NCBI GenBank assembly: GCA_030602715.1
Contig: JAUVZD010000001.1
Coordinates: forward strand, 270,213 to 334,212
From: Candidatus Coatesbacteria bacterium
Lineage (GTDB): Bacteria; RBG-13-66-14; B26-G2; JAUVZD01
Direction: 5' to 3'
DNA length: 64,000 bases
Every line of letters begins with the position of its first letter. Position 1 is the first letter of the stretch. This document shows positions 1 through 57,578 of this stretch, piece by piece. The position numbers were made by a program, and so were the translations under genes. The notes under the pieces were generated by a model that was not told where the DNA came from, did no database searches, and saw only the letters and a list, made by a program, of their open reading frames with translations.

Positions 1-580
1 GGAGCTGAACAGCTATCTCGGAAAGGACGACATAGCCGGAGGCGTCTATGGCTGAGAAGTCAACCGCTTGCAGGGCGCATCTGCGAAAACAACGAAAACC
101 GTTAGTATAATCTTTGATGGGTATCCCCAACAGTGCCCGGGCGTAGAGGTTAGCCAGCTTGGAGAAGAGGCGGCGCAGGCAGGGCCAGTTGACGATACGA
201 GAGCTCGCCAGGTAGCGAGAGCCGATGACCATATCATACTCGGAGGTTTTCTCTATCAGCCTGGGGAGTTCGGCGGGGTGGTGGGAGAAGTCGGCGTCCA
301 TCTCGCAGATGAGCTCCGCACCGGCGGACAAAGCCCGCTTAAAACCCACAATGGTCGCCCCGCCCCGCCCCTCCTTCCCCCGACGGTGGATGACCTCCAG
401 ATGGGGATACTCTCCCCATAGATTATCAGCCAATCTGCCGGTTCCGTCCGGCGAGTTATCATCAACGATTATCAGGTGCAGATTGGGAACTGCCTCATAC
501 AACTCGGCGACCATTCGTTCAATATTATCCGCCTCGTTGTAGGTGGGGATTATGAGGGCTATTCTCTTAACACCTGCCAT
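1..580 (-). CDS. Glycosyltransferase family 2, polyprenyl-phosphate sugar transferase-like (ArnC/DPM1 type); 3' end lies beyond the window
   Basis: Absent from the ORF track because it is truncated by the window edge. Reverse-strand translation from ATG at 578-580 reads MAGVKRIALIIPTYNEADNIERMVAEL..IIVDDNSPDGTGRLA..GKEGRGGATIVGF..ICEMDADFSHHP, a GT-A/GT2 signature. Start is 27 nt downstream of the DegT-family stop, same strand. Confidence 0.75.
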   Translation of the reverse strand, partial: MAGVKRIALIIPTYNEADNIERMVAELYEAVPNLHLIIVDDNSPDGTGRLADNLWGEYPHLEVIHRRGKEGRGGATIVGFKRALSAGAELICEMDADFSHHPAELPRLIEKTSEYDMVIGSRYLASSRIVNWPCLRRLFSKLANLYARALLGIPIKDYTNGFRCFRRCALQAVDFSAIDASGYVVLSEIAVQL

Positions 581-606
581 TCCAACATCTTCTCCCCTGC
601 CCACCT

Positions 607-1815
607 TCACTCACCAAACTTTTTAAAGAATTCTGCAAAAGTAGCAACTATGTAATCCAGGTCCTCACCGCTGAGGTTTTGGTGAACGCCTATATACAAA
701 CCCCTGCGACCCACCGCCTCAGCGTTGGGGAACTCCCCTTTCTTATGACCCAGATACTCAAAAGCCGGCTGTTGGGTGGGGATGGAGCCGAATGCGGGAC
801 GAGTCTCTATTCGAGAGTGCTCAAGGTGTTTTACCAACTCCCTGCGGGTGAAGGGCGCTTCCTCCGACACCATAATTGGGTAGCAGAGGGGGCTTATCCA
901 CCCATCTTCACCTTCCTCAAATAGGTTTAGATAATCACAAAATTGCCCCAGCCCCTCATTGAGGAAGAAGAAGTTCTTACGTCTTGCCTGAACTATCTGG
1001 TCAAGTCGTTCTATCTGCTCCAGCCCGATAGCCGCCTCCAGATCGTTCATCTTGGCGGAGTAACCGATACGCAGGAAGCTGAAACGGGAATCCTCCAGGT
1101 CGCCACCTTGCTCAAAGCGAATTGAGCAGTAACCGCTGTCCACATTCAACTTGCAGACCGGGCAGGAGCAAGCCCGACCGTGAGCTCTGAGGGAACGGAG
1201 CACCTCAGCCTGCTTCTCATCTCCTGCCAGCACCGCCCCACCCTCGCCGGTGGTTATAATATGGGCGACATAGAAACTGAAAGCCCCCATATCCCCCATA
1301 GTCCCCACCAATTTGCCCTTATACCTGGCTCCATGGGCTTCTGCGGCGTCCTCCACCACGAACAGATTATGCTTCCGAGCCAACTCCAGAAGTGGGTCCA
1401 TATCACAGGGGCGCCCGAAAAGGTGCGTGGGAATCATACCCACAGTCTGGGGACCTATGGCCTGTGCCGCCGCCCGAGGGTCAATATTCCAGCTCTTTGG
1501 GTCCACATCCACAAATTCAGGCACATAACCTGCATGAATTATGGCATTGGCTACGGAGATAAAATTCAGCGCCGGGACCAACACCTCCCCCTGTGGTGGA
1601 TAGCCCAGTTGGCGAAAGGAGGCTAAGGCGATGGTATCTGCGTCGGTGCCGGTGGATACCGCCACGCAGTAGGGCATGCGGTGGTATTCGGCAAAAGCTT
1701 TCTCAAACCGGCGCACATTGACTCCACCGGATATTCTCCCACGTTTCAGGGCATCCACGACCATGTTGATACCCTTCTCCCCGATATCCACCGTACCGAC
1801 GGTTATCTTTCTCAT
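607..1815 (-). CDS. DegT/DnrJ/EryC1/StrS-family sugar-nucleotide PLP/PMP enzyme; His at the Schiff-base Lys position, so possibly a 3-dehydratase-like enzyme rather than an aminotransferase
   Basis: 402 aa ORF. VEDAAEAHGARYKGKLVGTMGDMGAFSFYVAHIITTGEGGAV aligns gap-free with the DegT/ArnB core (IEDAAHA..SFHAIKNITCAEGG), with His185 (codon 1261-1263) where the Lys is expected. CSCPVCKLNVDSGYC Cys cluster at 1126-1170. Confidence 0.8.
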   Translation of the reverse strand: MRKITVGTVDIGEKGINMVVDALKRGRISGGVNVRRFEKAFAEYHRMPYCVAVSTGTDADTIALASFRQLGYPPQGEVLVPALNFISVANAIIHAGYVPEFVDVDPKSWNIDPRAAAQAIGPQTVGMIPTHLFGRPCDMDPLLELARKHNLFVVEDAAEAHGARYKGKLVGTMGDMGAFSFYVAHIITTGEGGAVLAGDEKQAEVLRSLRAHGRACSCPVCKLNVDSGYCSIRFEQGGDLEDSRFSFLRIGYSAKMNDLEAAIGLEQIERLDQIVQARRKNFFFLNEGLGQFCDYLNLFEEGEDGWISPLCYPIMVSEEAPFTRRELVKHLEHSRIETRPAFGSIPTQQPAFEYLGHKKGEFPNAEAVGRRGLYIGVHQNLSGEDLDYIVATFAEFFKKFGE

Positions 1816-1919
1816 AACCCTTTTCTCTCCGCTTGAAGCAGCGACGATATTTAGGCAAAATTAGCATACATCACCGACACTATCAAGTGTGTAAAAATAA
1901 ATTCTAAAAAAGTTTGCAA

Positions 1920-1948
1920 TTGACTTATCTTCCACACTTTGATAGAAT
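1920..1948 (+). promoter_or_regulatory. Sigma-70-like promoter TTGACT-17-TAGAAT immediately upstream of folK; implies a leaderless or near-leaderless transcript
   Basis: TTGACT at 1920-1925, 17-nt spacer, TAGAAT at 1943-1948. folK ATG at 1955 is only 6 nt after the -10 and has no Shine-Dalgarno. Confidence 0.4.
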
Positions 1949-1954
1949 TCGCAG

Positions 1955-2512
1955 ATGGTTTACAACGACAGATTCAGTCACCGGGTATTTCTTGGGTTGG
2001 GTTCAAATCTAGGAGAGCGTGAGAAGAACCTACGGTCCGCCCTCGCCCTGCTGACCAAAGACGGACTGATAGACCTGGTCCACTGTTCAACGATTTACCG
2101 CACCGAAGGGGTTAATTCCGGGCGTGGTGAGCCGGAGTATCTCAACCAGGTCATTGAGGTGAACACCGGCCTCCCCCCGCACCATCTTCTTAAGGTATGC
2201 CGGCGAGTGGAGGAAAGATTAGGGCGTCCCTCCAGACGGAAACGGAGCGGTCCCAGGGTTCTGGACATTGATATACTTTTTTATGACGACATCATCGTAA
2301 ATAACGAGGAGCTGGTAATTCCCCATCCCCGGGCGGCAAGAAGGCGCTTCGTGCTAGAGCCCCTGGCCGAGATCGCTCCCGACCTCTTACACCCGGTAAT
2401 GCAGATGCCGATAAGCAAGCTCCTCAAATCCACCGACGACAACGGCTGGATTAAGGAGTATGAGCGGAAAGATAAGGGGAAGAGCCCGGTAAAACCGAAG
2501 GCGAAAAAATGA
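1955..2512 (+). CDS. folK: 2-amino-4-hydroxy-6-hydroxymethyldihydropteridine pyrophosphokinase (HPPK)
   Basis: VFLGLGSNLGERE..L, LDIDILFYDD, IPHPRAARRRFVLEPLAEIAP are HPPK hallmarks. Confidence 0.9.
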   Translation: MVYNDRFSHRVFLGLGSNLGEREKNLRSALALLTKDGLIDLVHCSTIYRTEGVNSGRGEPEYLNQVIEVNTGLPPHHLLKVCRRVEERLGRPSRRKRSGPRVLDIDILFYDDIIVNNEELVIPHPRAARRRFVLEPLAEIAPDLLHPVMQMPISKLLKSTDDNGWIKEYERKDKGKSPVKPKAKK

Positions 2513-3366
2513 CCGATTTTGACAATCTGCCCAAGATATTCAACCACCACTTCTCGGCGATGAAGGCTGAGAACCACCCCATCACCGCCCTGACCGCCTA
2601 CGATTATCCCACTGCGGAGCTTCTAGATGGCGTCGGTCTGGAGCTCATCCTGGTGGGGGATTCTCTGGGGATGGTGGTTCAGGGAAAGCCGACAACCATA
2701 GGGGTTACCCTGGAGGAGATGCTCTATCACTGTAATATGGTCAGTGGTGCGGTCAAGCGGGCGATGGTCTGCCTGGATATGCCCTTCATGAGCTACCAGG
2801 CAAACCAGGATGAGGCGCTTTATAATGCCGGTCGCTGTCTCGCCGAAGGGGGCGCCGGCTCGGTGAAGGTGGAAGGTGCACACATAGACCTCATCCGCAG
2901 GATGGTGGAGAACGGTATACCCGTCCTCGCCCACCTGGGCTGCACCCCGCAGAGTTACCACCAGCTCGGAGGTTACACTATAGTCGGAAAAGATGTCTCC
3001 CAGGCAAAACAGCTTCTATCCGATGGGTTGGCGGTGGAGGAAGCGGGGGCTTATGCGCTGGTCCTGGAGTGCGTCCCCACCGAAGTAGCCCAGACCATCA
3101 CCGGAAAGCTATCCATCCCCACCATCGGAATCGGTGCCGGTCCCCACTGCGACGGTCAGATTCTGGTGCTCCATGATATCCTCGGGCTCTACCACAAGAT
3201 ACCCAGACACGTAAAAGTCTATAAGGACCTGAATGCGGTAATCCGCCGGGCGATTTCAGAATACAAGCAAGATGTTCGCCGGGGCGATTTTCCCGGTGAG
3301 GATAACTACTACCGACTGGATAAAGCCACCCAAAAAGCGTGGCAGAAGGTTAAAAAGGCGAAGTGA
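2509..3366 (+). CDS. panB: 3-methyl-2-oxobutanoate hydroxymethyltransferase (ketopantoate hydroxymethyltransferase)
   Basis: ITALTAYDYPTAELLDGVGLELILVGDSLGMVVQG, GAGSVKVEG, PVLAHLGCTPQS. Overlaps the folK stop by 4 nt. Confidence 0.9.
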   Translation: MTDFDNLPKIFNHHFSAMKAENHPITALTAYDYPTAELLDGVGLELILVGDSLGMVVQGKPTTIGVTLEEMLYHCNMVSGAVKRAMVCLDMPFMSYQANQDEALYNAGRCLAEGGAGSVKVEGAHIDLIRRMVENGIPVLAHLGCTPQSYHQLGGYTIVGKDVSQAKQLLSDGLAVEEAGAYALVLECVPTEVAQTITGKLSIPTIGIGAGPHCDGQILVLHDILGLYHKIPRHVKVYKDLNAVIRRAISEYKQDVRRGDFPGEDNYYRLDKATQKAWQKVKKAK

Positions 3367-3378
3367 GGGAACAAATAG

Positions 3379-4257
3379 ATGGAGCTGGTAGTTGATGTAA
3401 CGGAGATGCAAGCCCTTGCCGACAAAGCTCGCCTGGAGGGAGAACGCATCGCCCTGGTTCCCACCATGGGCGCACTCCACCAGGGGCACATGTCGCTGGT
3501 GAAATTAGCCCGGGAACGGTGCGATTTCCTGGTGGTCTCCATCTATGTCAACCCCGCCCAGTTTGCTCCCGAAGAAGACCTGGACATCTATCCCCGCACC
3601 TTGGAGAAGGATGAGGAGAGCTGCCGTGGGGCAGGTGTGGATGTCATCTTCGCTCCCGAGGACAAGACGATGTATCCTGAGCGATACTCCACCTATGTCA
3701 ATGTTGAGGGTTTGAGCGAGGTTTTGTGCGGAGCCAGCCGACCGACCCACTTTCGGGGAGTAAGCACCATTGTCGCCAAGCTGTTTAACATCGTCAAACC
3801 GCATATAGCGGTCTTCGGTCAAAAGGATGCCCAGCAGGCTGTGGTCATCAAGCGGATGACCGCCGACTTGAACTGGGATATAGAGATAGCCGTTGCGCCC
3901 ATCTTGCGGGAGGAGGACGGCTTGGCGATGAGCTCCCGCAATCGCCACCTATCAGCACAGGAGCGAAAGGGAGCGGTCCTGCTCCATCAAGCGCTCAGCG
4001 AGGCAAAGGCTTTGCTGGGTGAGGGGGAACGGTCCGCTGAAAAGTTGAAGAAAAGGATGAAAGAGATAATCTCCGCAAAGACACTGAACCGCATTGATTA
4101 TATATCTGTGGTGGAGGCGGATAGCCTGAGGGATGTATCAGAGATAAAAGGCGAAACCCTGCTTGCCCTGGCGGTTTACGCCGGGGAGACGCGACTAATA
4201 GATAATATGCTCATCGGAGCTGACGATTTGAAATCCATTAATGAGGAAGGCAATTGA
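3379..4257 (+). CDS. panC: Pantoate--beta-alanine ligase
   Basis: ALVPTMGALHQGHMSLV, VSIYVNPAQF, VFGQKDAQQ motifs. Confidence 0.9.
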   Translation: MELVVDVTEMQALADKARLEGERIALVPTMGALHQGHMSLVKLARERCDFLVVSIYVNPAQFAPEEDLDIYPRTLEKDEESCRGAGVDVIFAPEDKTMYPERYSTYVNVEGLSEVLCGASRPTHFRGVSTIVAKLFNIVKPHIAVFGQKDAQQAVVIKRMTADLNWDIEIAVAPILREEDGLAMSSRNRHLSAQERKGAVLLHQALSEAKALLGEGERSAEKLKKRMKEIISAKTLNRIDYISVVEADSLRDVSEIKGETLLALAVYAGETRLIDNMLIGADDLKSINEEGN

Positions 4258-4258
4258 G

Positions 4259-4606
4259 ATGCTTAGGAAATTCTGCCGTTCCAAGATATACAACGCCAGG
4301 ATTACCTTCAAACAGTTGGAATATGAGGGTAGTATTACAATTGACGCCCAGCTTATGGAGCTGGCGGAAATTGCCGAGGGGGAGATAGTCGCAGTGCTCA
4401 ATATCAACAATGGGGCTCGCTTTGAGACCTATGTCATCAAAGGAGACAGGGGAAGCGGGGTTGTTGGACTAAACGGCGCCGCCGCCCGTCTCGGGGAGGT
4501 CGGCGATAAAGTGATCATATTCGCCTTCGGGTATCTTTCCCCTGAGGAGACCGAGGACTTCTCCATGCGCCGTCTCCATGTGGATGATAATAACCGTCCC
4601 CAATAA
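4259..4606 (+). CDS. panD: Aspartate 1-decarboxylase
   Basis: MLRKFCRSKIYNARITFKQLEYEGSITID resembles the PanD N-terminus incl. the G-S processing site context. Start chosen at ATG 4259 (1 nt after the panC stop, RBS gaggaagg upstream) rather than the ORF-track start at 4241. Confidence 0.85.
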   Translation: MLRKFCRSKIYNARITFKQLEYEGSITIDAQLMELAEIAEGEIVAVLNINNGARFETYVIKGDRGSGVVGLNGAAARLGEVGDKVIIFAFGYLSPEETEDFSMRRLHVDDNNRPQ

Positions 4607-4659
4607 AATAAACCCCTAAAAACAACCCATAAAATACCCCACCAAGGTCACCCCAGATT

Positions 4660-7242
4660 ATGTTTAATAGAACCATTATAACGATATTGATGATAATCAC
4701 CGCGATTGGGGCGCTGTCCACCTCCAGCCGTGCCGAACTAACCGACAAACTATCGCTGGGGATCGATATGTTCGATCACCAGCTTTTCAATTTAGCCGCT
4801 CATCAGTTCCGGGAATACATCCACCAGAATCCCACCGCATCCGACCTGGACCTGGCGCAGTTCTATTTAGCCCACTGCGACCAATCCCTGGGCAACTATC
4901 ACCAAGCCATTCAGGAATACCGTGACCTGCTCATCACCTACCCCGGCTCCTCCCTGGTTGATGCCGGCTGGCTGGAGCTCTCTCGTTGTTACATGAAGAA
5001 AGGCGATGAGGCAAGCGCCGAGGAGGCACTGCGAAAGGCGCTCAGCCTCCCGATGAAGAAAGAGGTCAACTTCGCCGCCCACTCCGAACTGGGCACTCTG
5101 CTATATAACCAGAATCAATTTGAGCAGGCGGTCTCCGTCTATCTCCAGCTCATGGAGGCCACCCCAGACCTGAACAAGACCGCCTGGGAGAGATACCGCC
5201 TGGCTCAGGTCTATATCACCATGGAAGACTACCAGAAGGCAATAGTCCAACTGGAGTTGATAGACTCAAGTGAACCTCACCCACTGCTCAAGGCTCTAAC
5301 CAACTATCATCTCGCCCACTGCCGGGCGGCTCTGGGGCAGTTGGAAGAAGCTTTAGGAATCCTTGATTACGACCAGCTTTTCCCGGAGGAGATGCTCTCT
5401 CATAAGCTATTCCTGCAAGCAAGCCTGCAGGTGGCGCTAAACGAATATCCGCAGGCTCTGGAGACCTTAAACGAGCTCATAGAGGCAGAGGATTCCATGC
5501 GGTCTCAGGTTCCCATCTTGCAAGACCCAACCATCACCACTGAGGACATCCGCATAATCTCCGCCTGGCTGGATTTTCAGCTGGGAGACCACATCAGTGC
5601 CGAAGGCAAGCTGGCGGAGGTCTATTCCCAGGCGAAGGACGCCGAAACCCAAGCCCAAACTTTGTTTCTGATAGGATACCTCAGCTACCAGAGGGAGAAC
5701 TACCCCTTCGCCCTGGAATATTTCGCCAAGTTCGCCTCCGACTTCCCCCACCATCCCTATCTGGTGCAAGCGATATACTACCAGGGCTGGTGCCACTACA
5801 AAATGGGAGATTATGAGCAGGCCAGGGACATATTCTCCACCCTTCTCGCTCAAAATCCCCAGATTGAGGAGAGCCCCTACTTTGCCTTTCTGGTGGGGGA
5901 GTGCGGCTATAAGACCGAGCACTACCAGCGGGCTATGGAGGATTTTGAGCTCTTCACCCGCAACTACCCCCAAAGCAGTTTGTATCTATACGGTTTTCTG
6001 CGCACCGCCGACTGCCTCTTTCAGCTGGGGGAGAACGAACAGGCGGTTGACCACTACCGTGACTTCATTGATAAATATCCCCAATCCGACATCACCCCCC
6101 TGGCTTACTGGAATCTTGGCAGGGCATATAGCAATCTCGGTCAAACGGAGGAGATGCGCGATGTCTATATTGAGTTTATCACCAACTTCCCGGACCATGA
6201 ACTTGCCGACGATTCCGCCCTGGCTATGGTGAGGTCGCTCTACCTGGAGGGAAAATACGAACTGTGCATCGGATGGGTTGACGACTTCACAGACAGACTT
6301 CCTAAAAGCGACTTTGCTCCCAAGATGCTCTGGTATAAGGGAAAATCGCTCTACGACCTCACCCGCTATGATAGCGCCATGAAGGTTTTTGCCTATATAC
6401 ATAAGAACTACTCCGCCACCATAGTGGGGCAGGATGCGCTCTATTACACCTACCTCACCGACCAGAAATTGGGTAAATACTCCAATCCACTTACCGCATC
6501 CGTTGCCTTCTTGAACGAACATCCCCAGAGCAGTCTGGCTCCAAAAGTCAAAATTTTAGTAGCCCAATACTACAGCGACGAACGAAACTTCAGCTACGCC
6601 ACCAAGTTGTTGAAGGAGATTCTCTCAGAGGAGGAGGATATTGGAATACTCTGTGAGGCTACCGAAAAACTGGCGGACATCTATAAACGCCAGGGGATGG
6701 ATATAGACGCAGCCGAGATTTACGTGTGGCTGGCGGAGCGCATGAAGAGATCGCCCTCCCGCTATGATTATCTGCTAAAGGCGGCGGGGCTCTATAACGA
6801 AGGTGGACTGGCGGAGGAAGCCATAGACATCTATCAGGTCTTTCTGGACGAAATACCCCACGATCCCCGAATAAGCACGGTCCTATACAATCTGGGGTTA
6901 ATTTATAAGGACCTGCGCATGTTTGAAAGCGCTCAGGTGATATTGGATAAGCTGGTGCGGGAGTGGCAAAGCAGTAAGGAGTATCTATTGGGTTGTTTTC
7001 AGCTGGCTTTCGTATATCAATATCTAGCCGACCTTCCCAAAGCCATCAAATATCATAAGATAGTCATATATAACGGCGGGGCAGATCTGGCGGTTCAGTC
7101 TATGTATTGGGTTGGAAAATGTTATTACGATCTGCGAGAGTTTTCGGCGGCGGAGGAATGGTTGAAAAGGCTGGTAAGGGAATATCCCACTCACACCGCT
7201 TGGGTGAATAAGGCAGATGCGCTACTGGAAAAAATGTACTGA
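4660..7242 (+). CDS. Large secreted tetratricopeptide-repeat (TPR) protein
   Basis: 860 aa; N-terminal signal peptide (MFNRTIITILMIITAIGALSTSSRA); repeated TPR-like helical units with W/Y-x-LG-x-Y spacing throughout (e.g. AYWNLGRAYSNLGQ, LYNLGLIYKDLRMF). Confidence 0.7.
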   Translation: MFNRTIITILMIITAIGALSTSSRAELTDKLSLGIDMFDHQLFNLAAHQFREYIHQNPTASDLDLAQFYLAHCDQSLGNYHQAIQEYRDLLITYPGSSLVDAGWLELSRCYMKKGDEASAEEALRKALSLPMKKEVNFAAHSELGTLLYNQNQFEQAVSVYLQLMEATPDLNKTAWERYRLAQVYITMEDYQKAIVQLELIDSSEPHPLLKALTNYHLAHCRAALGQLEEALGILDYDQLFPEEMLSHKLFLQASLQVALNEYPQALETLNELIEAEDSMRSQVPILQDPTITTEDIRIISAWLDFQLGDHISAEGKLAEVYSQAKDAETQAQTLFLIGYLSYQRENYPFALEYFAKFASDFPHHPYLVQAIYYQGWCHYKMGDYEQARDIFSTLLAQNPQIEESPYFAFLVGECGYKTEHYQRAMEDFELFTRNYPQSSLYLYGFLRTADCLFQLGENEQAVDHYRDFIDKYPQSDITPLAYWNLGRAYSNLGQTEEMRDVYIEFITNFPDHELADDSALAMVRSLYLEGKYELCIGWVDDFTDRLPKSDFAPKMLWYKGKSLYDLTRYDSAMKVFAYIHKNYSATIVGQDALYYTYLTDQKLGKYSNPLTASVAFLNEHPQSSLAPKVKILVAQYYSDERNFSYATKLLKEILSEEEDIGILCEATEKLADIYKRQGMDIDAAEIYVWLAERMKRSPSRYDYLLKAAGLYNEGGLAEEAIDIYQVFLDEIPHDPRISTVLYNLGLIYKDLRMFESAQVILDKLVREWQSSKEYLLGCFQLAFVYQYLADLPKAIKYHKIVIYNGGADLAVQSMYWVGKCYYDLREFSAAEEWLKRLVREYPTHTAWVNKADALLEKMY

Positions 7243-8821
7243 TAGGAATAAGCTGGCGCTTTATTCTATTTTCGTCCTCTGTGCAATCCTATGCCCCAGC
7301 GCACAAAGTTGCGCCGACGACGACATAGATAAGAAGGCTGAGGAATCCCTCTTTGCGCCGGATCCTTTCACCGATGTCTATGAATTTTTGCAAAAAGCCT
7401 CTCCCCATAAGTCCGCCTTCCGGGTGGATAGAGTGGAGGAGCTGACCCAGCCGCCAGACGAGCAAGGTGCCGAAAACCACGAACGGCGAGGTTTCTATCA
7501 CACCATAGAGGCTTGCGGGGGATTGGGGGAAAAGAATAGCCGTCAATTTGACGGCATCTACGGTATGGAGAGCAAAATACTCAACCAGGTCATCCTGGGG
7601 AAATATCTATCCCTAGGAAATAGTGGTGCGGAAGGATACCGAGAGAACATACATTTAAAATACGACCTGCTCTTTGACCTCACCTTCGGACGGCAGTTAA
7701 GCTGTGGCTTGGAGTATTTCCGCAACCGATACAGTTACCAATCACCCGAACACCCCGGCACCCCACCAGTTTATTTTTCAACACAAGCAACTGAACATAG
7801 ATATTTTGATATCGGCGCCTTTACCGACCTGGGGAAGTATATCAAAATCTATTTTGACGGCTTTGCCGAATCTGACCACCTGGAAGACGAGAGCTCCAGT
7901 TATAAACACCGCACCTTGGGCGGGGAGTTCTGCGGACAGTTCATCCTGCCAAATTGGGACTATCTAACCAAGGTGGAGTTGGATGTCTATAGAGACTGGA
8001 TGAGTGGAGCCGAAAGTAGGGCTACATTTATAAATATTTCTCTTGAAAACGAACTCCCCATAAAAGACCATCTCTTTCTCACCTTTGGAGGAAGGATTGA
8101 CAGCTACCGCAATCTCATCACCCGGTTCTATCCCACCGCCGGCATCCACCTGCGTATCAACCCCAAGACCGGCTTCTACCTATATTATCAGCCCCAACTG
8201 AGCCGACTTGATTTTCACCATCTCTTCATTGATGAGCGTTATTCCACGGTAAGCGAGCCGCTCAAGCCCACCCAGGAATACACCTCCATCACCGCCGGCT
8301 TCAACTACAACTTCTCCCAGTTGATAGAGAGCAAAGTAGAGTTATACCGCAAGGATGTTCTGGATTACATATACTACACTGATTATGATGGTCTCATCAC
8401 TCCCGCCAATCTCCACCAAGCCACCATCTACGGCATAAAGATAAGCTACTCCTTTAGAGCCAGCGAACGTTTTAATCATTACGCCTCTCTCAACATAGAG
8501 GATATAATTGATGACGAGAACGCTTTCCAGGTTATCCCTTACCACCCCCGCATCACCTTTGACGCCGGAATTGAACTCTCCCCCCTATCCTTATGGGAGT
8601 TGAGCATCGGGGGCAGATTTGTCGGTGACCGCCCCACCTCCTATCCGGAGACTACTCTGGACTCATATTTTATCCTCAACACCCAATCGGTTCTGTGGAT
8701 AACCCCCTATCTCGGTTTTGACCTGCACCTGGACAACCTGCTCAACTCCCAGTATGAGGAAATATCCAACCTCACCCATCCCGGTCGCTTCATCTCCGCC
8801 GGCTTGCGGCTGAAAATATAG
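7217..8821 (+). CDS. Hypothetical secreted protein, beta-rich, possibly outer-membrane associated
   Basis: 534 aa ORF overlapping the TPR gene end by 26 nt; hydrophobic N-terminus (LALYSIFVLCAILCPSAQSC); alternating aromatic/polar stretches typical of beta-strands. No recognisable catalytic motif. Confidence 0.4.
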   Translation: MRYWKKCTDRNKLALYSIFVLCAILCPSAQSCADDDIDKKAEESLFAPDPFTDVYEFLQKASPHKSAFRVDRVEELTQPPDEQGAENHERRGFYHTIEACGGLGEKNSRQFDGIYGMESKILNQVILGKYLSLGNSGAEGYRENIHLKYDLLFDLTFGRQLSCGLEYFRNRYSYQSPEHPGTPPVYFSTQATEHRYFDIGAFTDLGKYIKIYFDGFAESDHLEDESSSYKHRTLGGEFCGQFILPNWDYLTKVELDVYRDWMSGAESRATFINISLENELPIKDHLFLTFGGRIDSYRNLITRFYPTAGIHLRINPKTGFYLYYQPQLSRLDFHHLFIDERYSTVSEPLKPTQEYTSITAGFNYNFSQLIESKVELYRKDVLDYIYYTDYDGLITPANLHQATIYGIKISYSFRASERFNHYASLNIEDIIDDENAFQVIPYHPRITFDAGIELSPLSLWELSIGGRFVGDRPTSYPETTLDSYFILNTQSVLWITPYLGFDLHLDNLLNSQYEEISNLTHPGRFISAGLRLKI

Positions 8822-8891: not shown

Positions 8892-10760
8892 TCAAACCAT
8901 ATATCTCTCCCGCCACATCTGGAGAAAGAGCAGAATCCACAGACGATGATAATGGTCCCTCTTCCCCGACCTGTGCTCGGCGACCAATCTTCGCACTCCC
9001 ACCGGTTTCAGAATATCATCCTCCGTAAGTCTTTGCTCGCCGAGATACCGCTCCAGGACGGGCGCCAGTTCCCCCCTAAACCAATCTCCCAGAGGAACCG
9101 CGAAGCCCCTCTTGGGGCGCTCAAAGAGCTCCCTGGGTAGATAGCGTTGGAGCAGACGGCGCAGAAGCAGCTTAGTTTTATTCCCCCTGACTTTCCATTT
9201 CAGCGGAAGCCGAAAAGCGCTCTCCACCACCCGATGGTCCAAGAGGGGAACCCGCACCTCAAGTGAATGAGCCATACTAGCCCTATCCACCTTGACCAGC
9301 AGGTCATCTACCAAATAACTGCTCAGGTCCAAAAGCATCGCCGCTTCCCGCGGGTCCCGTTCCTTCAGTGTGGCACGCATTCGCTCTTCATATTCCGCCC
9401 CGTTCCTCTCCCCCTCAACCAACCATTCCTCACGGAGTATGTCCCCCAAGAAGCGTCTGTCAAATATGGATATCGCTCGCAGGTAAGTCTCTGCCAGATC
9501 ATCCTCATCCTCCAGTCGGCGCAGGCTCTCCCCCCAGGAATCCCGCAAAAGCCCCAGAACCACCCGCAAAGAGCTCATCAGAGGTGACGGTAGGTTCCGA
9601 AATCTCGCCATCCTCCCCAGCCATCTGTAGCGGTCGTAGCCACAGAAGAGCTCGTCCCCTCCGTCGCCGGAGAGGGCAACGGTAACATACCCCCTGGTCA
9701 TCTTGGAGAGCAAGAAGGTGGGTATCGCCGAAGGGTCACCGAAAGGCTCATCATAATAATCCATAAGCAACGGTATCGCTGACAACAGGTCCCGGGGACC
9801 GACATACTGCTCGGTATGCTCACAGCCGAGATGGTGGGCTACCCTTTTAGCAAAGGGCGCCTCATTGTAGGCGGGGTCCTCAAAGCCGATGGTGAATGTC
9901 CTTGGAGGAGACCCTCCCTGCTCAGCCATCAGCGCCACCACCAGGCTGGAGTCTATCCCCCCGGAGAGGAAACTGCCCAGAGGGACATCGCTCACCAAGC
10001 GATCCCTGACCGCCTGACGCAGAATCCGCAGAAACTCCTCCTCAACATCTGCATCGCTCCCCTCCCCCCACTTCACACCGGCTTCACCGATATGCCAATA
10101 CCGCTCCTCCACCAACTCCTTTCCATCAAAGCGAAGGATGGAGCCGGGGGGAAGCTTGCGCACCGACTTGAAGATGGAATGCGGTGCGGGAACATACTGG
10201 AAACGAAGGTAAGCAAGCAGTGCCTGCGGTGAGAGTTCTTTGGAGAACCGGGGTAAGTCAATCAGGGATTTTATCTCCGAGCCGAAAGCTAGGAAACCGG
10301 GGTCGGACAGATAATATAACGGCTTTATTCCCAGCCGGTCTCGGACTAAGTATAACGACCCTTCATCCTCATCCCACAGGGCGAGGGCGAACATACCCAC
10401 AAAACGGTTCACACAACCAATCCCCCACTGCATATAGGCTTTCAGAGCCACCTCGGTATCCGACCGACTCCGAAAACTATGCCCCAACCCCTCAAGTTCC
10501 TCCCTGATCTCCCGGAAATTATAGACCTCGCCGTTATAAGTTATCGCCACACCACCGTCTGAGGAGAGCATGGGGGCGTTCCCGCTCGGTGATGTATCTA
10601 TGACCGCCAGCCGAGCTTGAGCCAAACCCACGGTATGGTCATCGTTTAACCACACGCCTTCGTGGTCCGGTCCCCGGTGGCGGAGGGTGGAGACCATTTT
10701 CTCCAGCGTCCGCAGATCAATCCCACCCGAGAGGGAGAACATCCCCGCTATTCCGCACAT
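8892..10760 (-). CDS. asnB: Asparagine synthase (glutamine-hydrolysing)
   Basis: N-terminal MCGIAGMFS (Ntn Cys2), GMFALALWDED, SGGIDSS PP-loop-type motif. Confidence 0.9.
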   Translation of the reverse strand: MCGIAGMFSLSGGIDLRTLEKMVSTLRHRGPDHEGVWLNDDHTVGLAQARLAVIDTSPSGNAPMLSSDGGVAITYNGEVYNFREIREELEGLGHSFRSRSDTEVALKAYMQWGIGCVNRFVGMFALALWDEDEGSLYLVRDRLGIKPLYYLSDPGFLAFGSEIKSLIDLPRFSKELSPQALLAYLRFQYVPAPHSIFKSVRKLPPGSILRFDGKELVEERYWHIGEAGVKWGEGSDADVEEEFLRILRQAVRDRLVSDVPLGSFLSGGIDSSLVVALMAEQGGSPPRTFTIGFEDPAYNEAPFAKRVAHHLGCEHTEQYVGPRDLLSAIPLLMDYYDEPFGDPSAIPTFLLSKMTRGYVTVALSGDGGDELFCGYDRYRWLGRMARFRNLPSPLMSSLRVVLGLLRDSWGESLRRLEDEDDLAETYLRAISIFDRRFLGDILREEWLVEGERNGAEYEERMRATLKERDPREAAMLLDLSSYLVDDLLVKVDRASMAHSLEVRVPLLDHRVVESAFRLPLKWKVRGNKTKLLLRRLLQRYLPRELFERPKRGFAVPLGDWFRGELAPVLERYLGEQRLTEDDILKPVGVRRLVAEHRSGKRDHYHRLWILLFLQMWRERYMV

Positions 10761-10775
10761 ACAATCACCCCATCC

Positions 10776-13340
10776 TCATTTTTTCTTTGGGGGCATGACC
10801 CCATCGGTGGGCTTCATTGGAATGCTATTGTTGTTGGTGGAGTTGGGTATAGTAATTTCCTCCTGTTCCAGCTCCTGCTCTTCCTCCTCCTTTGCCACCA
10901 GAAGCATGTAGAAAGTCTTGTTCTTGAATATCGCCTCCCGATCCCGCATCAGCCCGGGGAGATTGGCGGCGACATTGTGGCAGTAGCCGATGACTTCCCG
11001 GTCCAGCTTCATCAGCGCCGCCTCCTCCCAGCTTATCCCCTCCACCTTCTTGTGCCAATATGGTCCCAGCCACTTTATCAGCTTGTTAAAACGTTCCCTG
11101 CCCTCTACGGTTGACTCCAATGGAAATTTGTAATCCCCGATTATGTGAGCCACCAAATCCTCACGAAACTTTTTCAGATAGAGTTCCATATCTCCGTCGC
11201 ATTCGCCGAAGAACAGCTCCACAGACTCGTTTTCCTCCGTCTCGGGGTGGTCGTAGAGATAGATTATCATCACCCGGGTGGCTTCCGGACCGGCGTTGTA
11301 GGAAGAGCCGGCCAGCTTCGCCCGCCTTAAAAGCCCCTTCTTGCTGGTGGCATCCAGCATTCCCCCCAGCTTCATCTCCTGGCGAAATCGTTCATCAAAA
11401 CGAGAGCCCCCGCAGTTATCAAACATCTCCTTCAAAAACTGCGCCGCCATCTCTATGTTACAACGGTTTATGTTGCGTAAAAAGTAGCGCTCCTTAAAAG
11501 TCCAATCACCCAGCCGCCTGGATACCAGTTCCTCGCCGTCCCAGAAGGTCATCACATAGTGGGTTGCGCCTATCACATCCGCGGTCATCTGCATATAGCC
11601 GGTAGCCGAGCCCCGTCCCTTACCCGCCCGGTATATGCGCCCACTGCCGGAGATGTGTGCCAAGCCGGACTCCTGGTAGCCAACGGCTATCAGCAGGCTG
11701 ACGAAGGCGTCATCGGAGATATCGTAGATTACCCCCTCCTGCAGACCTCCGGATGAGGGCTGGGGGGTGTAGTTACGGCGGGAGTTGGCACGCCTGCCGA
11801 TCTCCTCAAAGAGATGATAGAGGCTGTAATGGGGATTCTCGGCGTCATAGGCGGGCAGATTGTCCAGGTCCTTGAGGGTGATGGGCACCGGCACCTTGGG
11901 CACATCAAAGGTGGTGTTGAGGATTGCCTCTAAGGTATCGCCGGCGATTATATAGGAGAGTTCTTCTTTCGTGGGCTCATAGTTATATTCCGGAGGAAGG
12001 TTGTCAAAGCGGAGGAGTATCTCCCGCTCCTTTTTCGCATCCACGGAGAAAGTGGACTGATACCACTCCACCATCTCCGCCATATCATCGTCATATACGC
12101 TGGTTATCTCCACCAGCTCCGGAAAATTCACTCCCTTACCCGCCTCATAAAACTCCCAGTAAGCCCCCCGGATTAAATTGAGTGTCCTCTGCAGGGAGCC
12201 GATGCAGGCGGGAGCCACCTCCCCGAAGGGCAACCAGGGACCACGAGTGCCGTAATATAGAAAGTCGTCGCCCTCACCCTTCTGCCGGGTGTAGATGCCG
12301 TCTATACCGTCGGGAAAGGACTGAATCTGCTTTATCCCCCGGCTGGTGTCATAGGGAAAGCCGACGCTGCCATCCCCGAGATGGCGACCTATCAGTTTGG
12401 GGAAGGTGCCGGACATAGCATGGGTTACCGCTATCTCCATCTCCTGTCTGTCGGGGTTGGGTGGAAATGCCAGAAACTCCTCCCCCTCCCGTTCAAAGAC
12501 CAGCAGCGCTGTATATTCCCCCGGCGGAAGAGGACGGGGCGAGCCGAATCTTCCCACATTGCCCCAGCCATACCAGACAAATTCACCCACCGCTTCCTTG
12601 GACAGAGCGTGCGGGTAACCCTCCCGATAACCTATCTCCCCCCGACTGCTCACCTCAAAGACCAGCTCGCCGTCTGAATCGTAGACGCGCAGGTGGATAT
12701 CATCCCTCCCGGCGGGCACCGGATCCAAGGTGTAGCCCACCACCACCTCCTGAGAGACATAGTCGGCATCCTGCACAATCCATGAGCGGAAATCAGCCTC
12801 CTCCAGGACGGCGTAGATTTTTCCGGAATTGTCCAGATACTGCACTCCCAATAGGGAGATAATTCCCCCTCCGTCCACCAGACTGACCTCCACGCTCTCC
12901 CCCCGACCGGGGATATAATAAATATATAGATGTTCCTGGGGATAAGCTATATCCGGCTCGTGAATCTCCCCCTGGATGGAGACGATGGGGTTCTTGATGT
13001 TGAACTGCTCCCCAAAGCCGGTGTATAGAGCATCGCTCTTTCCGTTCAAGGAGAAGGCTACTGTGCCCTTAACCACCAATTTGTAGAGATGACCGCTTGA
13101 CAAGGGGGAAGTGATCATCGGTAATCCGCTTCCCGGAACCGCCAGGTATCGCCCCGGCTCGCTTCCGACGGGGAGCAGAACCGCAAGAAAGATGACCAGC
13201 AAAGCGGAAATAAGACAGATCAGTGGTGGGAAGAAGGGGCGGCGGACATTGACAGCCTCCCGCAAGGAGGGGCGGGGAAGCGAGGGAGCGATCGGTGCGG
13301 AAAGCTCATTCCTTGCGTAAATCTCAGAGCTGATATTCAT
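10776..13340 (-). CDS. Membrane-anchored protein with C-terminal family-1 lytic transglycosylase (Slt-like) domain and a large N-terminal domain of unknown function
   Basis: All three Slt motifs are present: GYQESGLAHIS (E-S), GYMQM (GLMQ-like), SSYNAGPEA (AYNAG). Hydrophobic anchor LICLISALLVIFLAVLL. Acidic C-terminal tail (EEEEQELEQEE). Start set to ATG 13340 (MNISSEIY), 1 nt from the glgC stop; the ORF track extends to 13379. Confidence 0.65.
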   Translation of the reverse strand: MNISSEIYARNELSAPIAPSLPRPSLREAVNVRRPFFPPLICLISALLVIFLAVLLPVGSEPGRYLAVPGSGLPMITSPLSSGHLYKLVVKGTVAFSLNGKSDALYTGFGEQFNIKNPIVSIQGEIHEPDIAYPQEHLYIYYIPGRGESVEVSLVDGGGIISLLGVQYLDNSGKIYAVLEEADFRSWIVQDADYVSQEVVVGYTLDPVPAGRDDIHLRVYDSDGELVFEVSSRGEIGYREGYPHALSKEAVGEFVWYGWGNVGRFGSPRPLPPGEYTALLVFEREGEEFLAFPPNPDRQEMEIAVTHAMSGTFPKLIGRHLGDGSVGFPYDTSRGIKQIQSFPDGIDGIYTRQKGEGDDFLYYGTRGPWLPFGEVAPACIGSLQRTLNLIRGAYWEFYEAGKGVNFPELVEITSVYDDDMAEMVEWYQSTFSVDAKKEREILLRFDNLPPEYNYEPTKEELSYIIAGDTLEAILNTTFDVPKVPVPITLKDLDNLPAYDAENPHYSLYHLFEEIGRRANSRRNYTPQPSSGGLQEGVIYDISDDAFVSLLIAVGYQESGLAHISGSGRIYRAGKGRGSATGYMQMTADVIGATHYVMTFWDGEELVSRRLGDWTFKERYFLRNINRCNIEMAAQFLKEMFDNCGGSRFDERFRQEMKLGGMLDATSKKGLLRRAKLAGSSYNAGPEATRVMIIYLYDHPETEENESVELFFGECDGDMELYLKKFREDLVAHIIGDYKFPLESTVEGRERFNKLIKWLGPYWHKKVEGISWEEAALMKLDREVIGYCHNVAANLPGLMRDREAIFKNKTFYMLLVAKEEEEQELEQEEITIPNSTNNNSIPMKPTDGVMPPKKK

Positions 13341-13341
13341 A

Positions 13342-14679
13342 TCAGGGGTCTTCACCGGATACCGTCCTTTTGAGCACATTCTCCCCGCTTTTCAGAGTCC
13401 GCATCTGACCGTAATCCTCCTCGGCTATATCCGAGCCGATCAGACAGTTTCTCCCGATGACCATTTGGGGAGGAACCGCGCTGTTTTTGCCGATGACCGA
13501 GAGACCGGTGTTCAGCAGGTCGGGAAACTCCCTGTTGGGGATGTCGTCCGCCCCCAGCCCGATACGCACCCCCTCACCGAGGACCACCCTCTTGTCCATA
13601 ATAACCCGGTCCAGAATACAGTCTCTCTGCACCAGGCAGTCGTCCATTATAATGGATGAGATTACCACGCTGTTCTGGTGGACGATGGTGCCGGGGAAGA
13701 TGACCGAATCTACCACCCGCCCGTTGACGATACAGCCTGCGGACAACATACTGTTGTGAACGGAGGCATATTTCCCCAGTTTCACGGGCGGGGGTCCTGT
13801 GCTGGCGGTGAAGATGGGCCAATCCCTGTCGTAGAGGTTCAGCTTGGGCTCGGCGCCCAGGAGGTCCATATTAGCCTCCCAGTATGATTGCAGGGTACCC
13901 ACATCCCGCCAATACCCCTCGTAACGATAGGCATAGAGTTGAGCCCCCCTGCGCAACAGTATGGGGATAATATCTTTACCGAAGTCGTGGCTGGTTCGTT
14001 TTCGGCGGGCGTTTCGCTGTAGTGCATCCAGCAGGACTTTCTTCTTGAATAAATAGACCCCCATTGAAGCCAGGTTGCTCTCGGCTTTCCTGGGCTTCTC
14101 CTTAAAACCAGTTATCCGCCCCTTCTTATCGGTAAAAATTATTCCAAAACGGGAGACATCCTCCGGGGCAACCGGCAGAGCGGAGATGGTTAAGTCGGCA
14201 TCGGTCTTTTTTGCGAAATGGTATAATAAACGGTAGTCCATTTTGTATATGTGGTCGCCGGACAGGACTAGGATATAATTGAAATGACGGGTGGCGATGT
14301 AGCGCCGATTCTGGTAGATGGCGTCTGCGGTTCCCCGATACCAGCCACCGCCCTCGGACATCAACTGCGGCTGAAGGAGCTCCACGCCTCCGCGCCGGCG
14401 GTCCAGGTCCCAGGCTTTGCCGGTAGCGATGTGCTCCATAAGCGAGCGGGGGCGATACTGGGTGAGGACGGCGATGTTATCTATCTGGGAGTTTACGCAG
14501 TTGGACAGGCTGAAGTCAATTATGCGAAACTTCCCCCCAAATGGAACCGAGGGCTTTGCCCGCTTGTCGGATAGCACCGAAAGGCGCGCACCAACCCCTC
14601 CGGCAAGTATCACTGCCAGGACATCATCCACAGTTGAATACCTCATAGATACCTTCGGGAAAATAGTAACATAAGCCAA
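13342..14679 (-). CDS. glgC: Glucose-1-phosphate adenylyltransferase
   Basis: AVILAGGVGARLSVLSDKRAKPSVPFGGKFRIIDFSLSNCVNS, VLSGDHIYKMDY, LASMGVYLF are GlgC hallmarks. Alternative start MRYSTVDD at 14646. Confidence 0.9.
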   Translation of the reverse strand: MAYVTIFPKVSMRYSTVDDVLAVILAGGVGARLSVLSDKRAKPSVPFGGKFRIIDFSLSNCVNSQIDNIAVLTQYRPRSLMEHIATGKAWDLDRRRGGVELLQPQLMSEGGGWYRGTADAIYQNRRYIATRHFNYILVLSGDHIYKMDYRLLYHFAKKTDADLTISALPVAPEDVSRFGIIFTDKKGRITGFKEKPRKAESNLASMGVYLFKKKVLLDALQRNARRKRTSHDFGKDIIPILLRRGAQLYAYRYEGYWRDVGTLQSYWEANMDLLGAEPKLNLYDRDWPIFTASTGPPPVKLGKYASVHNSMLSAGCIVNGRVVDSVIFPGTIVHQNSVVISSIIMDDCLVQRDCILDRVIMDKRVVLGEGVRIGLGADDIPNREFPDLLNTGLSVIGKNSAVPPQMVIGRNCLIGSDIAEEDYGQMRTLKSGENVLKRTVSGEDP

Positions 14680-22848: not shown

Positions 22849-23229
22849 TCAGTTCTTTTTAGCTTGCTCCATAGCGACCAACTTCCTGAGTAGGTCCCTA
22901 TCCCTCTCGGAAACATCCAAGAAGTGGATAGCTATAGCGTATGGCATAGACGAGTCGTGTCCGTCTTCTGCACACCGCACCACTATCCCCTCGCAGATAA
23001 TCTCCTGTGTCTTCCCCTTGGAGGGTTTGGGGAAAGATACCAGCAAGCGCAACTGCACAATGGTAAATACTTCAAAAGGGACCTCACAGTCGCAATATAG
23101 TCCACTCTCGCTGATATTGCGGGTGATTATGGTGTTTTCGGGGACCTTTTTCAACGGCTCGTGCAGTCCCCCACCCAGGCGGGCATCTACTCTGGAAAAT
23201 CTCCTTCTCTCCTTCTGGTTATCACCCAC
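22849..23229 (-). CDS. PilZ-domain protein (putative c-di-GMP receptor)
   Basis: RRFSR (RxxxR) followed by NISESG ((D/N)xSxxG), the two c-di-GMP-binding PilZ motifs at the expected spacing. Start overlaps the upstream gene stop by 8 nt. Confidence 0.65.
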   Translation of the reverse strand: MGDNQKERRRFSRVDARLGGGLHEPLKKVPENTIITRNISESGLYCDCEVPFEVFTIVQLRLLVSFPKPSKGKTQEIICEGIVVRCAEDGHDSSMPYAIAIHFLDVSERDRDLLRKLVAMEQAKKN

Positions 23230-24277: not shown

Positions 24278-24360
24278 ACGAACCTCTCCGGGATTGCTCC
24301 GATTAATAAAGTATCATAACACAGAGCTACTCAAGATAAAAGTTTTTCCTTTCCAGGCGA

Positions 24361-34656: not shown

Positions 34657-34680
34657 AAGCATATGCGGAGGATATAGTAA

Positions 34681-35148
34681 ATGCCAAGGGACAATAAGAA
34701 TATTCAGGAATACTCAATTCGGATAGGAAGCAACCCCAAATCGCTGGGACATGCCCGAGACTTCGTGATTCAATTGCTAAAAGAAAGCGGTTTTTCCAAC
34801 GACGAGATAAGCATTCTGGAGCTGGTGACCTATGAGGCTTGTGCCAACTCCATAGAACACGCTTACAGCAATCAACCGGATTTCTATGTAGATTTGAATA
34901 TCCAGATTCGCGGGCGGGAGGTGTTCATCAAAATTGAGGATAGCGGTCAGGAATTCCAACCCGGGGATATCCACCCGCTGGACATCGGCGATCGCATAGA
35001 CCGCCGTGCCAGCAGGGGTATGGGCTTGCCGTTGATGAAGACTTTGATGGATGAGGTGACAATTGAACGCACATTTGACAACCATAATCGCATTACCATG
35101 AGAAAGGATTTCTCCAAAAAAAAGAAAGCGCCTAAAGGAAAAACTTAG
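34681..35148 (+). CDS. RsbW/SpoIIAB-like anti-sigma regulatory factor (GHKL serine kinase)
   Basis: N-box LVTYEACANSIEHAY, G-box RGMGLPLMKTLMDEV; 155 aa; 24 nt after the phosphatase gene. Confidence 0.85.
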   Translation: MPRDNKNIQEYSIRIGSNPKSLGHARDFVIQLLKESGFSNDEISILELVTYEACANSIEHAYSNQPDFYVDLNIQIRGREVFIKIEDSGQEFQPGDIHPLDIGDRIDRRASRGMGLPLMKTLMDEVTIERTFDNHNRITMRKDFSKKKKAPKGKT

Positions 35149-35156
35149 GAGGAATA

Positions 35157-57573: not shown

Positions 57574-57578
57574 TAGAA

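Follow-up and report, generated by a model that had tools for sequence, protein, structure and literature searches.

The 64,000-nucleotide stretch of Candidatus Coatesbacteria contig JAUVZD010000001.1 that was analysed here (positions 270,213 to 334,212 of assembly GCA_030602715.1; hereafter the window) begins with two genes on the minus strand. One of them encodes a protein of 402 amino acids of the DegT family of sugar-nucleotide enzymes (PF01041); the other, which lies downstream and is cut by the window edge, encodes a glycosyltransferase of family 2 (GT2). The 402-residue protein is related to E1, the cytidine diphosphate (CDP)-6-deoxy-L-threo-D-glycero-4-hexulose 3-dehydrase of Yersinia and Salmonella (AscC, DdhC or RfbH), and it is called the E1-like protein in this text. 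The features of the locus, in positions of the window, are the following.

1..580, minus strand: 5' part (193 codons) of a gene predicted to encode a DPM1-like GT2 polyprenyl-phosphate glycosyltransferase (PF00535).
581..606, minus strand: spacer of 26 nt between the E1-like gene and the GT2 gene, read from the sequence; there is none if the GTG at 610 or at 604 is the start.
607..1815, minus strand: E1-like gene, 402 amino acids, for a putative pyridoxamine 5'-phosphate (PMP)-dependent nucleoside diphosphate (NDP)-4-ketosugar 3-dehydratase; intact open reading frame (ORF) with matches to PF01041 and E1.
1126..1170, minus strand: loop with four cysteines, C216-S-C218-P-V-C221-x8-C230, a putative Fe-S or other metal site, placed by alignment with the E1 loop.
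1261..1263, minus strand: codon of His185, in place of the Schiff-base lysine and presumed to be a general acid/base, placed by alignment with His220 of E1 and Lys186 of perosamine synthase.
1270..1272, minus strand: codon of Tyr182, inside SFY, which pairs with Tyr217 of E1 and is invariant across the family.
1342..1344, minus strand: codon of Ala158, at the position of Cys193, the distal [2Fe-2S] ligand of E1 (EDCCDALG in E1, EDAAEAHG here).
1816..1954: divergent intergenic region between the E1-like gene (minus strand) and folK (plus strand), from the ORF map.

The 402-residue protein belongs to PF01041 with an E value of 1.4e-97 and 327.6 bits (gathering cutoff 19.8), and an exact-sequence look-up found no database record for it. 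A homologue that is 97% identical (P0001, on contig L001) was used to view the region past the window edge. Reading the sequence directly, the codon of His185 falls inside SFYVAHIITTGEGG, residues 216-230 are CSCPVCKLNVDSGYC, and the distance from Cys137 to Cys216 is 78 residues.

When all PDB sequences are considered, the best match of the protein is E1 (3BCX; E 4.6e-67, around 32% identity), in a single stretch that covers residues 11-397. Weaker matches are guanosine diphosphate (GDP)-perosamine synthase (1.5e-60), ColD (7e-44) and ArnB (1e-32). In the HMMER alignments, AFSFYVAHIITTGEGG lies without gaps against ATFSFFGNKIITTGEGG of GDP-perosamine synthase, with His185 opposite the catalytic Schiff-base Lys186, and it is also aligned to VSFYPAHHITMGEGG of E1, with His185 opposite the catalytic His220 and Tyr182 opposite Tyr217. 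The change of His for Lys had been claimed in an original prediction made from the DNA sequence alone; these alignments confirm it, it is not an alignment artefact, and no lysine appeared at the Schiff-base position on realignment. The alignments with Lys-type aminotransferases are split in two around residues 213-242, where the Cys loop is absent, and because of this break the Cys-rich segment is regarded as an insertion common to the E1-like protein and E1.

Profile and structure comparisons agree with this kinship. The top NCBIfam model is RfbH (NF011936), with 284.9 bits and thus under its equivalog cutoff of 423, and the models of ArnB (145.7 bits, cutoff 631) and WecE (160 bits, cutoff 375) fall far short. 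The AlphaFold2 model, built with 119 homologues, has a mean predicted local distance difference test (pLDDT) score of 93.6, the Cys loop being its lowest and sole soft region (66-89). With this model, a Foldseek search of the PDB placed perosamine synthase and E1 jointly on top, E1 having the highest query-normalised TM-score (0.89-0.90). The protein is therefore a His-type, ColD/E1-like member of PF01041, as had been proposed, and among solved structures E1 comes nearest to it in sequence as well as in the query-normalised comparison of the model. It is not an RfbH/E1 (DdhC) orthologue, as it scores below the cutoff and lies in a separate clade, and three of the features tested set it apart from the RfbH/E1 equivalog, namely its score, its ligand motif and the partners in its locus.

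A protein search over 5.8 billion sequences returned thousands of relatives, of which the best 120 are 49-97% identical. The E1-like protein was aligned with 118 homologues, the identities being 48-97%, and all 119 sequences share His185, Tyr182, Cys216, Cys218, Cys221, Cys230 and Arg233. The same seven residues are invariant in 81 of 81 genome and metagenome loci, which come mostly from one-genome-per-species contigs and were found with a scan pattern that itself demanded the first Cys. Such invariance of His185, Tyr182 and the four cysteines is far beyond chance.

The [2Fe-2S] cluster of E1 is reportedly held by C193, C251, C253 and C261, in a motif C-x57-C-x-C-x7-C ascribed to Agnihotri et al. 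2004, and the residue numbering of 3BCX reproduces these spacings exactly. On the E1-like protein, C193 maps to Ala158, C251 to C216, C253 to C218, C257 to C221 and C261 to C230, the loop having a 5-residue insertion with respect to C251-x-C253-x3-C257-x3-C261 of E1. The E1 motif (C-x57-C-x1-C-x7-C) is not found as such, since the spacings are x1 and x11, the C193 equivalent is Ala158 and there is an additional C221. As judged from the alignment, the motif of the protein is an all-local C-x-C-x2-C-x8-C variant of the E1 motif, because Ala158 takes the position of Cys193 and all four conserved cysteines lie in the loop. Position 158 is Ala in 105 and Cys in 6 of the 119 homologues, and it is Cys in the RfbH-type clade. 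In the set of representatives at 50% identity, RfbH-type proteins show WGRDCWCAPGxDNTCxKRF, have Cys at 158 and vary at the position of C257, whereas the family of the E1-like protein shows HGRACxCxxCxLNxxSxYCxxRF, has Ala at 158 and keeps the additional loop Cys without exception. Read most simply, the fourth ligand of a putative cluster would have been relocated from the distal strand into the loop, and the reversed pattern of the two clades is consistent with this. The likeness to the E1 cluster had been suggested before, and it holds for the loop, which aligns, and for its four local cysteines. It does not hold for the Cys about 78 residues upstream: Cys137 was considered as a fourth ligand and rejected, as it is unconserved (Ala in 100 of 119 homologues) and the true Cys193 equivalent is Ala158.

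The place of the protein among the His-type enzymes of PF01041 was studied in an alignment of 159 sequences that included the protein itself, the E1 fragment and the nearest 50%-identity representatives. The Schiff-base position is occupied by His in 134 and by Lys in 24 of them. Several loop classes can be distinguished in the His-type enzymes: E1/RfbH-like (CxC and Cys158), ColD-like (HGW, free of Cys), Cys-free 'HGRDSIYLSIDDDD', short-loop types, a short CxCxxCxRxxGxCP, and the type of the E1-like protein. A ColD-like representative, P0188, matches ColD with an E value of 4e-83. Assignment to the ColD type fails as well: the His is present, yet the loop of the E1-like protein carries four invariant cysteines and the ColD-like representatives cluster apart. 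In a rough neighbour-joining tree the sequences of this type form a clade of their own, with the Lys enzymes as outgroup; the proposed place in the His-type part of PF01041 is upheld, although the clade is apart from both the E1/RfbH and ColD clades. Scores are around 400 bits within the family and drop to around 290 bits (41% identity) at the next representatives.

The family is present in at least 568 species-level genomes of Coatesbacteria, Zixibacteria, Chloroflexota, Omnitrophota, Planctomycetota, Elusimicrobiota, Nitrospirota and Desulfobacterota. Where the best 120 homologues bear names, these are mostly 'DegT/DnrJ/EryC1/StrS family aminotransferase' or 'dTDP-4-amino-4,6-dideoxygalactose transaminase', and one is called 'E1'. 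Among His-type relatives, fusions to RmlD-like reductases, to short-chain dehydrogenases/reductases (SDR) of 4,6-dehydratase-like type, and to GT2 and GT4 domains have been found, which therefore place the whole His-type group in NDP-4-keto-sugar pathways. The 3,6-dideoxyheptose C3-dehydratases of C. jejuni were considered as members of the family and rejected, because they are reported to be 62-67% identical to the two characterised pyridoxal 5'-phosphate-dependent C3-dehydratases of E. coli O55:H7 and Y. pseudotuberculosis IVA. Related to the loop classes, the RfbH-type protein P0239 (778 amino acids) has an intein-like insertion of around 380 amino acids that splits the E1-type Cys loop (WGRSC/F...VHN/CWCKPGKDNTCGKRF).

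The GT2 frame starts at ATG 580 (MAGVKRIALIIPTYNEADN...) and remains open to base 2, where the window edge cuts it. The stop codon of the E1-like gene (TGA) occupies 607-609, and with either in-frame GTG (610 or 604) as start the genes would overlap (GTGA); on contig L001, the GT2 gene is called with a 4-nt overlap. A gap of 27 nt had been given originally, and it is 26 nt; the cut at the window edge and the polyprenyl-phosphate type of the enzyme were described correctly. No terminator-like site was found on the minus strand of the 581..606 spacer, and a scan for promoters and terminators gave nothing over the shuffled expectation.

The GT2 part in the window matches PF00535 (E 4.7e-28), and its top NCBIfam models, PpgS, AglJ and ArnC, are all polyprenyl-phosphate glycosyltransferases, although all of them score below their equivalog cutoffs. 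The full-length GT2 on L001 has around 249 amino acids. Its best PDB match is the dolichol-phosphate mannose synthase (DPMS) of P. furiosus (5MLZ; E 1.4e-34, residues 6-233), with the motifs DAD, GSRY and KD..(S/N)GF aligned, and the next match is ArnC (1e-15). Neither this protein nor its orthologues (233-259 amino acids) have a hydrophobic C-terminal segment. Judging from these comparisons, the GT2 is a DPM1-like polyprenyl-phosphate glycosyltransferase, which is predicted to be catalytic-only because that segment is missing.

An orthologous GT2 (285-560 bits against the L001 GT2) lies directly downstream of the E1-like gene in all members of the closest clade that were examined (the window, L001, L002, L004, L008, L009, L012 and L013). 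The pair occurs on the P0001 contig and in Coatesbacteria, Zixibacteria, Schekmanbacteria and Chloroflexi/Anaerolineae. In more distant members (P0092, P0102, P0103 and P0122) a GT2 domain is found at the C-terminus of the E1-like protein itself, in one polypeptide. The coupling of both proteins that had been proposed is thus borne out by the conserved pairing in the closest clade and by the fusions in some homologues. The fused domains of P0092, P0102 and P0103, the three that were compared, are not orthologous to the GT2 of the window, because they are merely 26-30% identical to it. A pairing universal in the family was also considered and rejected, since among the 81 loci the orthologous GT2 is directly downstream in the closest clade only.

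As for a complete three-component system (GT2, flippase and a glycosyltransferase of the GT-C type), no GT-C or flippase gene stands beside the pair in the window, nor in L001 beyond the edge. Genes of GT-C type are found near relatives, with PMT_2 in L020, L048 and L004, YfhO in L006 and L010, and a weak GT87 match in L008; in the Zixibacteria locus, PMT_2 is around 9 kb away. No flippase was identified.

The relatives at 45-51% identity (Omnitrophota, Planctomycetota including Brocadia, Elusimicrobiota, Nitrospirota, Geobacter, Syntrophales and others) have a different and strongly conserved operon, seen in the loci L014-L090 (for example L048:1-8900, L020:3000-17000, L022, L039 and L049). 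Its neighbour families, from our own ORF clustering over the 81 loci with annotation of the families afterwards, recur as follows.

58 loci: Fcl-like SDR(s).
56 loci: B12-binding radical S-adenosylmethionine (SAM) enzyme.
51 loci: HddA-like GHMP kinase.
49 loci: Transketolase-C / pyruvate dehydrogenase (PDH)-E1-beta-like subunit.
46 loci: ManC/HddC-like nucleotidyltransferase.
28 loci: PpgS/AglJ-like GT2.
17 loci: PDH-E1-alpha subunit.
17 loci: Transketolase-N subunit.
8 loci: GmhA.

The best matches of the nucleotidyltransferase, the kinase and the SDR are ManC/HddC, HddA and Fcl, respectively. PDH-E1-alpha or transketolase-N, together with transketolase-C, make up a two-subunit thiamine diphosphate (ThDP) enzyme, and in L020 and L048 the operon is followed by PMT_2 (ArnT-like) GT-C genes. 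The gene content suggests a pathway for a branched or methylated deoxy sugar, perhaps a heptose. A literature search on this combination of genes found nothing; the operon is apparently undescribed. Its context favours a pathway that is biosynthetic and not catabolic, in which the substrate is an activated sugar (probably linked to GDP) and the product is exported on a lipid carrier to a GT-C enzyme.

Around the pair itself there are few genes of evident relation to it. Past the window edge, L001 continues from the GT2 gene to an alpha/beta hydrolase, DUF202 and pyrimidine genes. On the other side, the plus strand of the window (1955-8821), divergent from the E1-like gene, carries folK-panB-panC-panD, a protein of 860 amino acids with tetratricopeptide repeats (TPR) and a TonB-receptor-like beta-barrel. 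In Coatesbacteria and Zixibacteria the pair is likewise flanked on one side by a divergent folK-panBCD-TPR block, and on the other by unrelated genes. The same order (HPPK, PanB, PanC, PanD, a protein of around 850 amino acids, which is the TPR protein in Coatesbacteria, and one of around 525) is found in Coatesbacteria CP070755 and in a metagenome-assembled genome of Zixibacteria. This block is lineage synteny and not a functional link. Neither E3 (AscD/RfbI) nor the CDP-glucose genes (RfbF, RfbG) were found beside the E1-like gene in the window or in the loci of relatives. The E3-type reductase, 4,6-dehydratase and nucleotidyltransferase genes that had been proposed as targets of a search beyond the edge are adjacent neither here nor on the longer contigs of close relatives.

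The remaining sugar genes of the window (GlgC, GalT, a TviC/GalE-like SDR, a Wzz-kinase and a UbiA-type protein resembling decaprenyl-phosphate phosphoribose (DPPR) synthase) are distant and are no obvious partners. The minus-strand trio at 23222-26630 consists of LPG_synthase_TM, a protein like UbiA-family decaprenyl-phosphate phosphoribosyltransferases (NF008977, 296 bits, cutoff 234) and a GHL10 glycosyl-hydrolase-like protein, and it points to a second polyprenyl-phosphate-sugar route, of pentofuranose type, in the same region. A group of polysaccharide-export type on the plus strand (55210-59609) comprises a Wzz/GNVR tyrosine-kinase-like protein (787 amino acids), the TviC/GalE-like SDR (322) and NTP_transf_5 (353). 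At 8892-13379 (minus strand) an AsnB-type glutamine-dependent asparagine synthase (622 amino acids) adjoins a protein of 867 amino acids that matches no Pfam family; genes for AsnB homologues are also found close to the E1-like gene in L031 and L049, which could indicate a sugar-amidating role. At 33064-37160 (plus strand) a HAMP-SpoIIE (PP2C) phosphatase, an ORF of 155 amino acids and a STAS-GAF-HD(HD_5) protein look like signalling of the partner-switching type.

On balance, we consider it probable that the 402-residue protein deoxygenates a nucleotide-activated 4-keto sugar with the help of PMP, in the manner of E1 and SpnQ, and that it is coupled to the lipid-carrier GT2. The mechanisms of E1, ColD and SpnQ have been reviewed in PMC8987622. 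By homology with E1, PMP and the sugar would condense at the C4 carbonyl to a ketimine, His185 would take the C4' proton of PMP, and the 3-OH would leave to give a delta-3,4-hexoseen-PMP adduct. Two single electrons would then enter via a metal centre on Cys216, Cys218, Cys221 and Cys230, most likely [2Fe-2S], and hydrolysis would release a 3-deoxy-4-keto sugar nucleotide and return PMP. Since no dedicated E3 is encoded nearby, the electrons may be supplied by ferredoxin or flavodoxin systems of general use, as in SpnQ, which is reported to receive them from general ferredoxin/flavodoxin reductase pairs (PMC8987622). The product, possibly after reduction by a ketoreductase encoded elsewhere, would be transferred to polyprenyl phosphate by the co-transcribed DPM1-like GT2, and a GT-C enzyme beyond the cytoplasmic membrane could then use the lipid-linked 3-deoxy sugar as its donor. 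The logic would be that of ArnB/ArnC/ArnT, with deoxygenation replacing amination. The nucleotide is probably GDP, as weakly hinted by the best match of the GT2 to the GDP-mannose-using DPMS, by the ManC/HddC, HddA and Fcl matches of the sister-clade operon, and by the 164 bits that the large domain of the E1-like protein scores against GDP-perosamine synthase.

Several observations weigh against this E1/SpnQ-type assignment. The protein stays under the RfbH equivalog cutoff and its family is a separate clade. With Ala in place of Cys193, zinc could be the metal in the all-local C-x-C-x2-C-x8-C loop, or the loop could be empty. No E3-like reductase, 4,6-dehydratase, nucleotidyltransferase or 4-ketoreductase is found near the gene in the window or in the loci of close relatives. 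Besides, the tight pairing with the GT2 is confined to the closest clade (at least around 54% identity), most relatives at 45-51% having the gene in another operon, and without prior reduction a 4-keto product would be an uncommon kind of donor for a GT2.

Some of these points would suit a redox-neutral 3-dehydratase like ColD, in which His catalyses the loss of the 3-OH, the enamine is hydrolysed, PMP is obtained from glutamate with no demand for electrons and the four-Cys loop plays a structural role with zinc; we regard this as unlikely. ColD is a clear homologue (E 7e-44), the equivalent of the distal ligand of E1 is Ala, compact four-cysteine loops often bind zinc, and no E3-type reductase is conserved in the 81 loci or appears among their ten most recurrent neighbour families. 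However, the loop of the protein aligns with the cluster loop of E1 and not with the Cys-free 'HGW' loop of the ColD type, and its family falls outside the ColD-like clade. The absent E3 is not diagnostic either, because SpnQ is reported to run on general ferredoxin/flavodoxin (PMC8987622). An ordinary sugar aminotransferase, which would form with the GT2 an amino-sugar pair of the ArnB/ArnC kind, is what the database names of the homologues and the membership in PF01041 would indicate, and SpnQ reportedly turns to transamination if it has no reductase (PMC8987622). Nevertheless, the Schiff-base lysine of the SF..x.K..T.GEGG motif is replaced by an invariant His, the ArnB and WecE models remain far below their cutoffs, and the Lys-type enzymes are an outgroup that lacks the Cys loop, so that this explanation appears very improbable.

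It may also be that the chemistry with PMP and a metal cluster is as proposed and the substrate is another one, such as a 4-keto derivative of a heptose, a pentose or a uronate, or a polyprenyl-phosphate sugar made by the GT2, in which case the product would be something other than a 3,6-dideoxyhexose. A 4,6-dehydratase gene is missing next to the pair. The neighbours of the gene in the sister clade are heptose-activation genes like HddA, HddC and GmhA together with those of a B12-radical SAM enzyme and a two-subunit ThDP enzyme, and this set points to an unusual sugar, possibly branched or of higher carbon number; the fusion or tight coupling to GT2 would fit channelling. On the other hand, we know of no DegT-family enzyme that acts on a lipid-linked sugar, and the characterised His-type members E1, ColD and SpnQ all use NDP-4-keto-6-deoxy sugars (PMC8987622). 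We consider such a different substrate rather improbable.

The original prediction of a deoxy-sugar route coupled to a lipid carrier is thus partly supported. Beyond the assignment of the single protein as an E1/SpnQ-type deoxygenase, a wider proposal can be put forward only tentatively: that the family is a large, uncharacterised branch of PMP-dependent sugar deoxygenases, with the E1-like protein as its founding example, in which a self-contained C-x-C-x2-C-x8-C loop holds a redox cluster that is reduced with no E3, and that it is wired in this clade, through an operon or a fusion, to a GT2, which may provide a lipid-linked 3-deoxy (possibly 3,6-dideoxy) donor for periplasmic glycosylation. 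If this were true, a lipid-linked 3-deoxy sugar would be a type of donor not yet described for three-component systems. Thousands of entries of the family are named 'aminotransferase', and the invariant His and the four-Cys loop argue that they are deoxygenases; such a renaming would alter the predictions of envelope glycan chemistry in many uncultured phyla. The move of the fourth ligand would be an experiment of nature on the E1-type coupling of PMP chemistry to one-electron transfer. Deoxy sugars may also enter extracytoplasmic glycosylation of the ArnC/ArnT kind, as suggested by the conserved pairing of the protein with GT2 or its fusion to it. All this would extend a known class of enzymes and would not overturn the current understanding of it.

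Among the characterised systems, E1 is the closest to the protein described here. Both have the same fold, a His where the Schiff-base Lys would stand, with the Tyr ahead of it, and a Cys-rich loop inserted after the 'HGR/WGR' motif and followed by the same '..RF', and three of the four ligand positions of E1 (C251, C253 and C261) are invariant Cys in the family. Nevertheless, identity is around 32%, Ala stands for Cys193, there is an additional invariant C221 in a loop 5 residues longer, and the partner gene is a polyprenyl-phosphate GT2 instead of nearby E3 (AscD) or CDP-glucose pathway genes. ColD (GDP-4-keto-6-deoxymannose 3-dehydratase, 2GMS) is likewise a PMP enzyme with His for Lys, and the class of GDP-sugar substrates may be common to both; unlike the E1-like protein, it has a Cys-free 'HGW..' loop, works in a redox-neutral way with PMP regenerated from glutamate, is around 25% identical and belongs to another clade. 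SpnQ, the thymidine diphosphate (TDP)-4-keto-2,6-dideoxyglucose 3-dehydrase of spinosyn biosynthesis, is a His-type Fe-S enzyme with no dedicated E3 (PMC8987622), which is the situation that we infer here. SpnQ serves an actinomycete natural-product pathway, whereas the E1-like protein would be part of a cell-envelope module with a lipid-carrier GT2. With regard to that GT2, its match to DPMS (5MLZ; of the DPM1/Ppm1 type) spans the catalytic domain and reaches into the region of the interface helices, although the C-terminal four-helix membrane domain of DPMS is lacking. Finally, the pair recalls the ArnB/ArnC/ArnT system of lipid A aminoarabinose; the DegT member is here His-type and dehydratase-like and the GT2 lacks the transmembrane helices of ArnC, but in both cases the gene of a DegT-family sugar-nucleotide enzyme adjoins that of a polyprenyl-phosphate GT2, and GT-C genes (PMT_2/ArnT-like, YfhO) are found near relatives.

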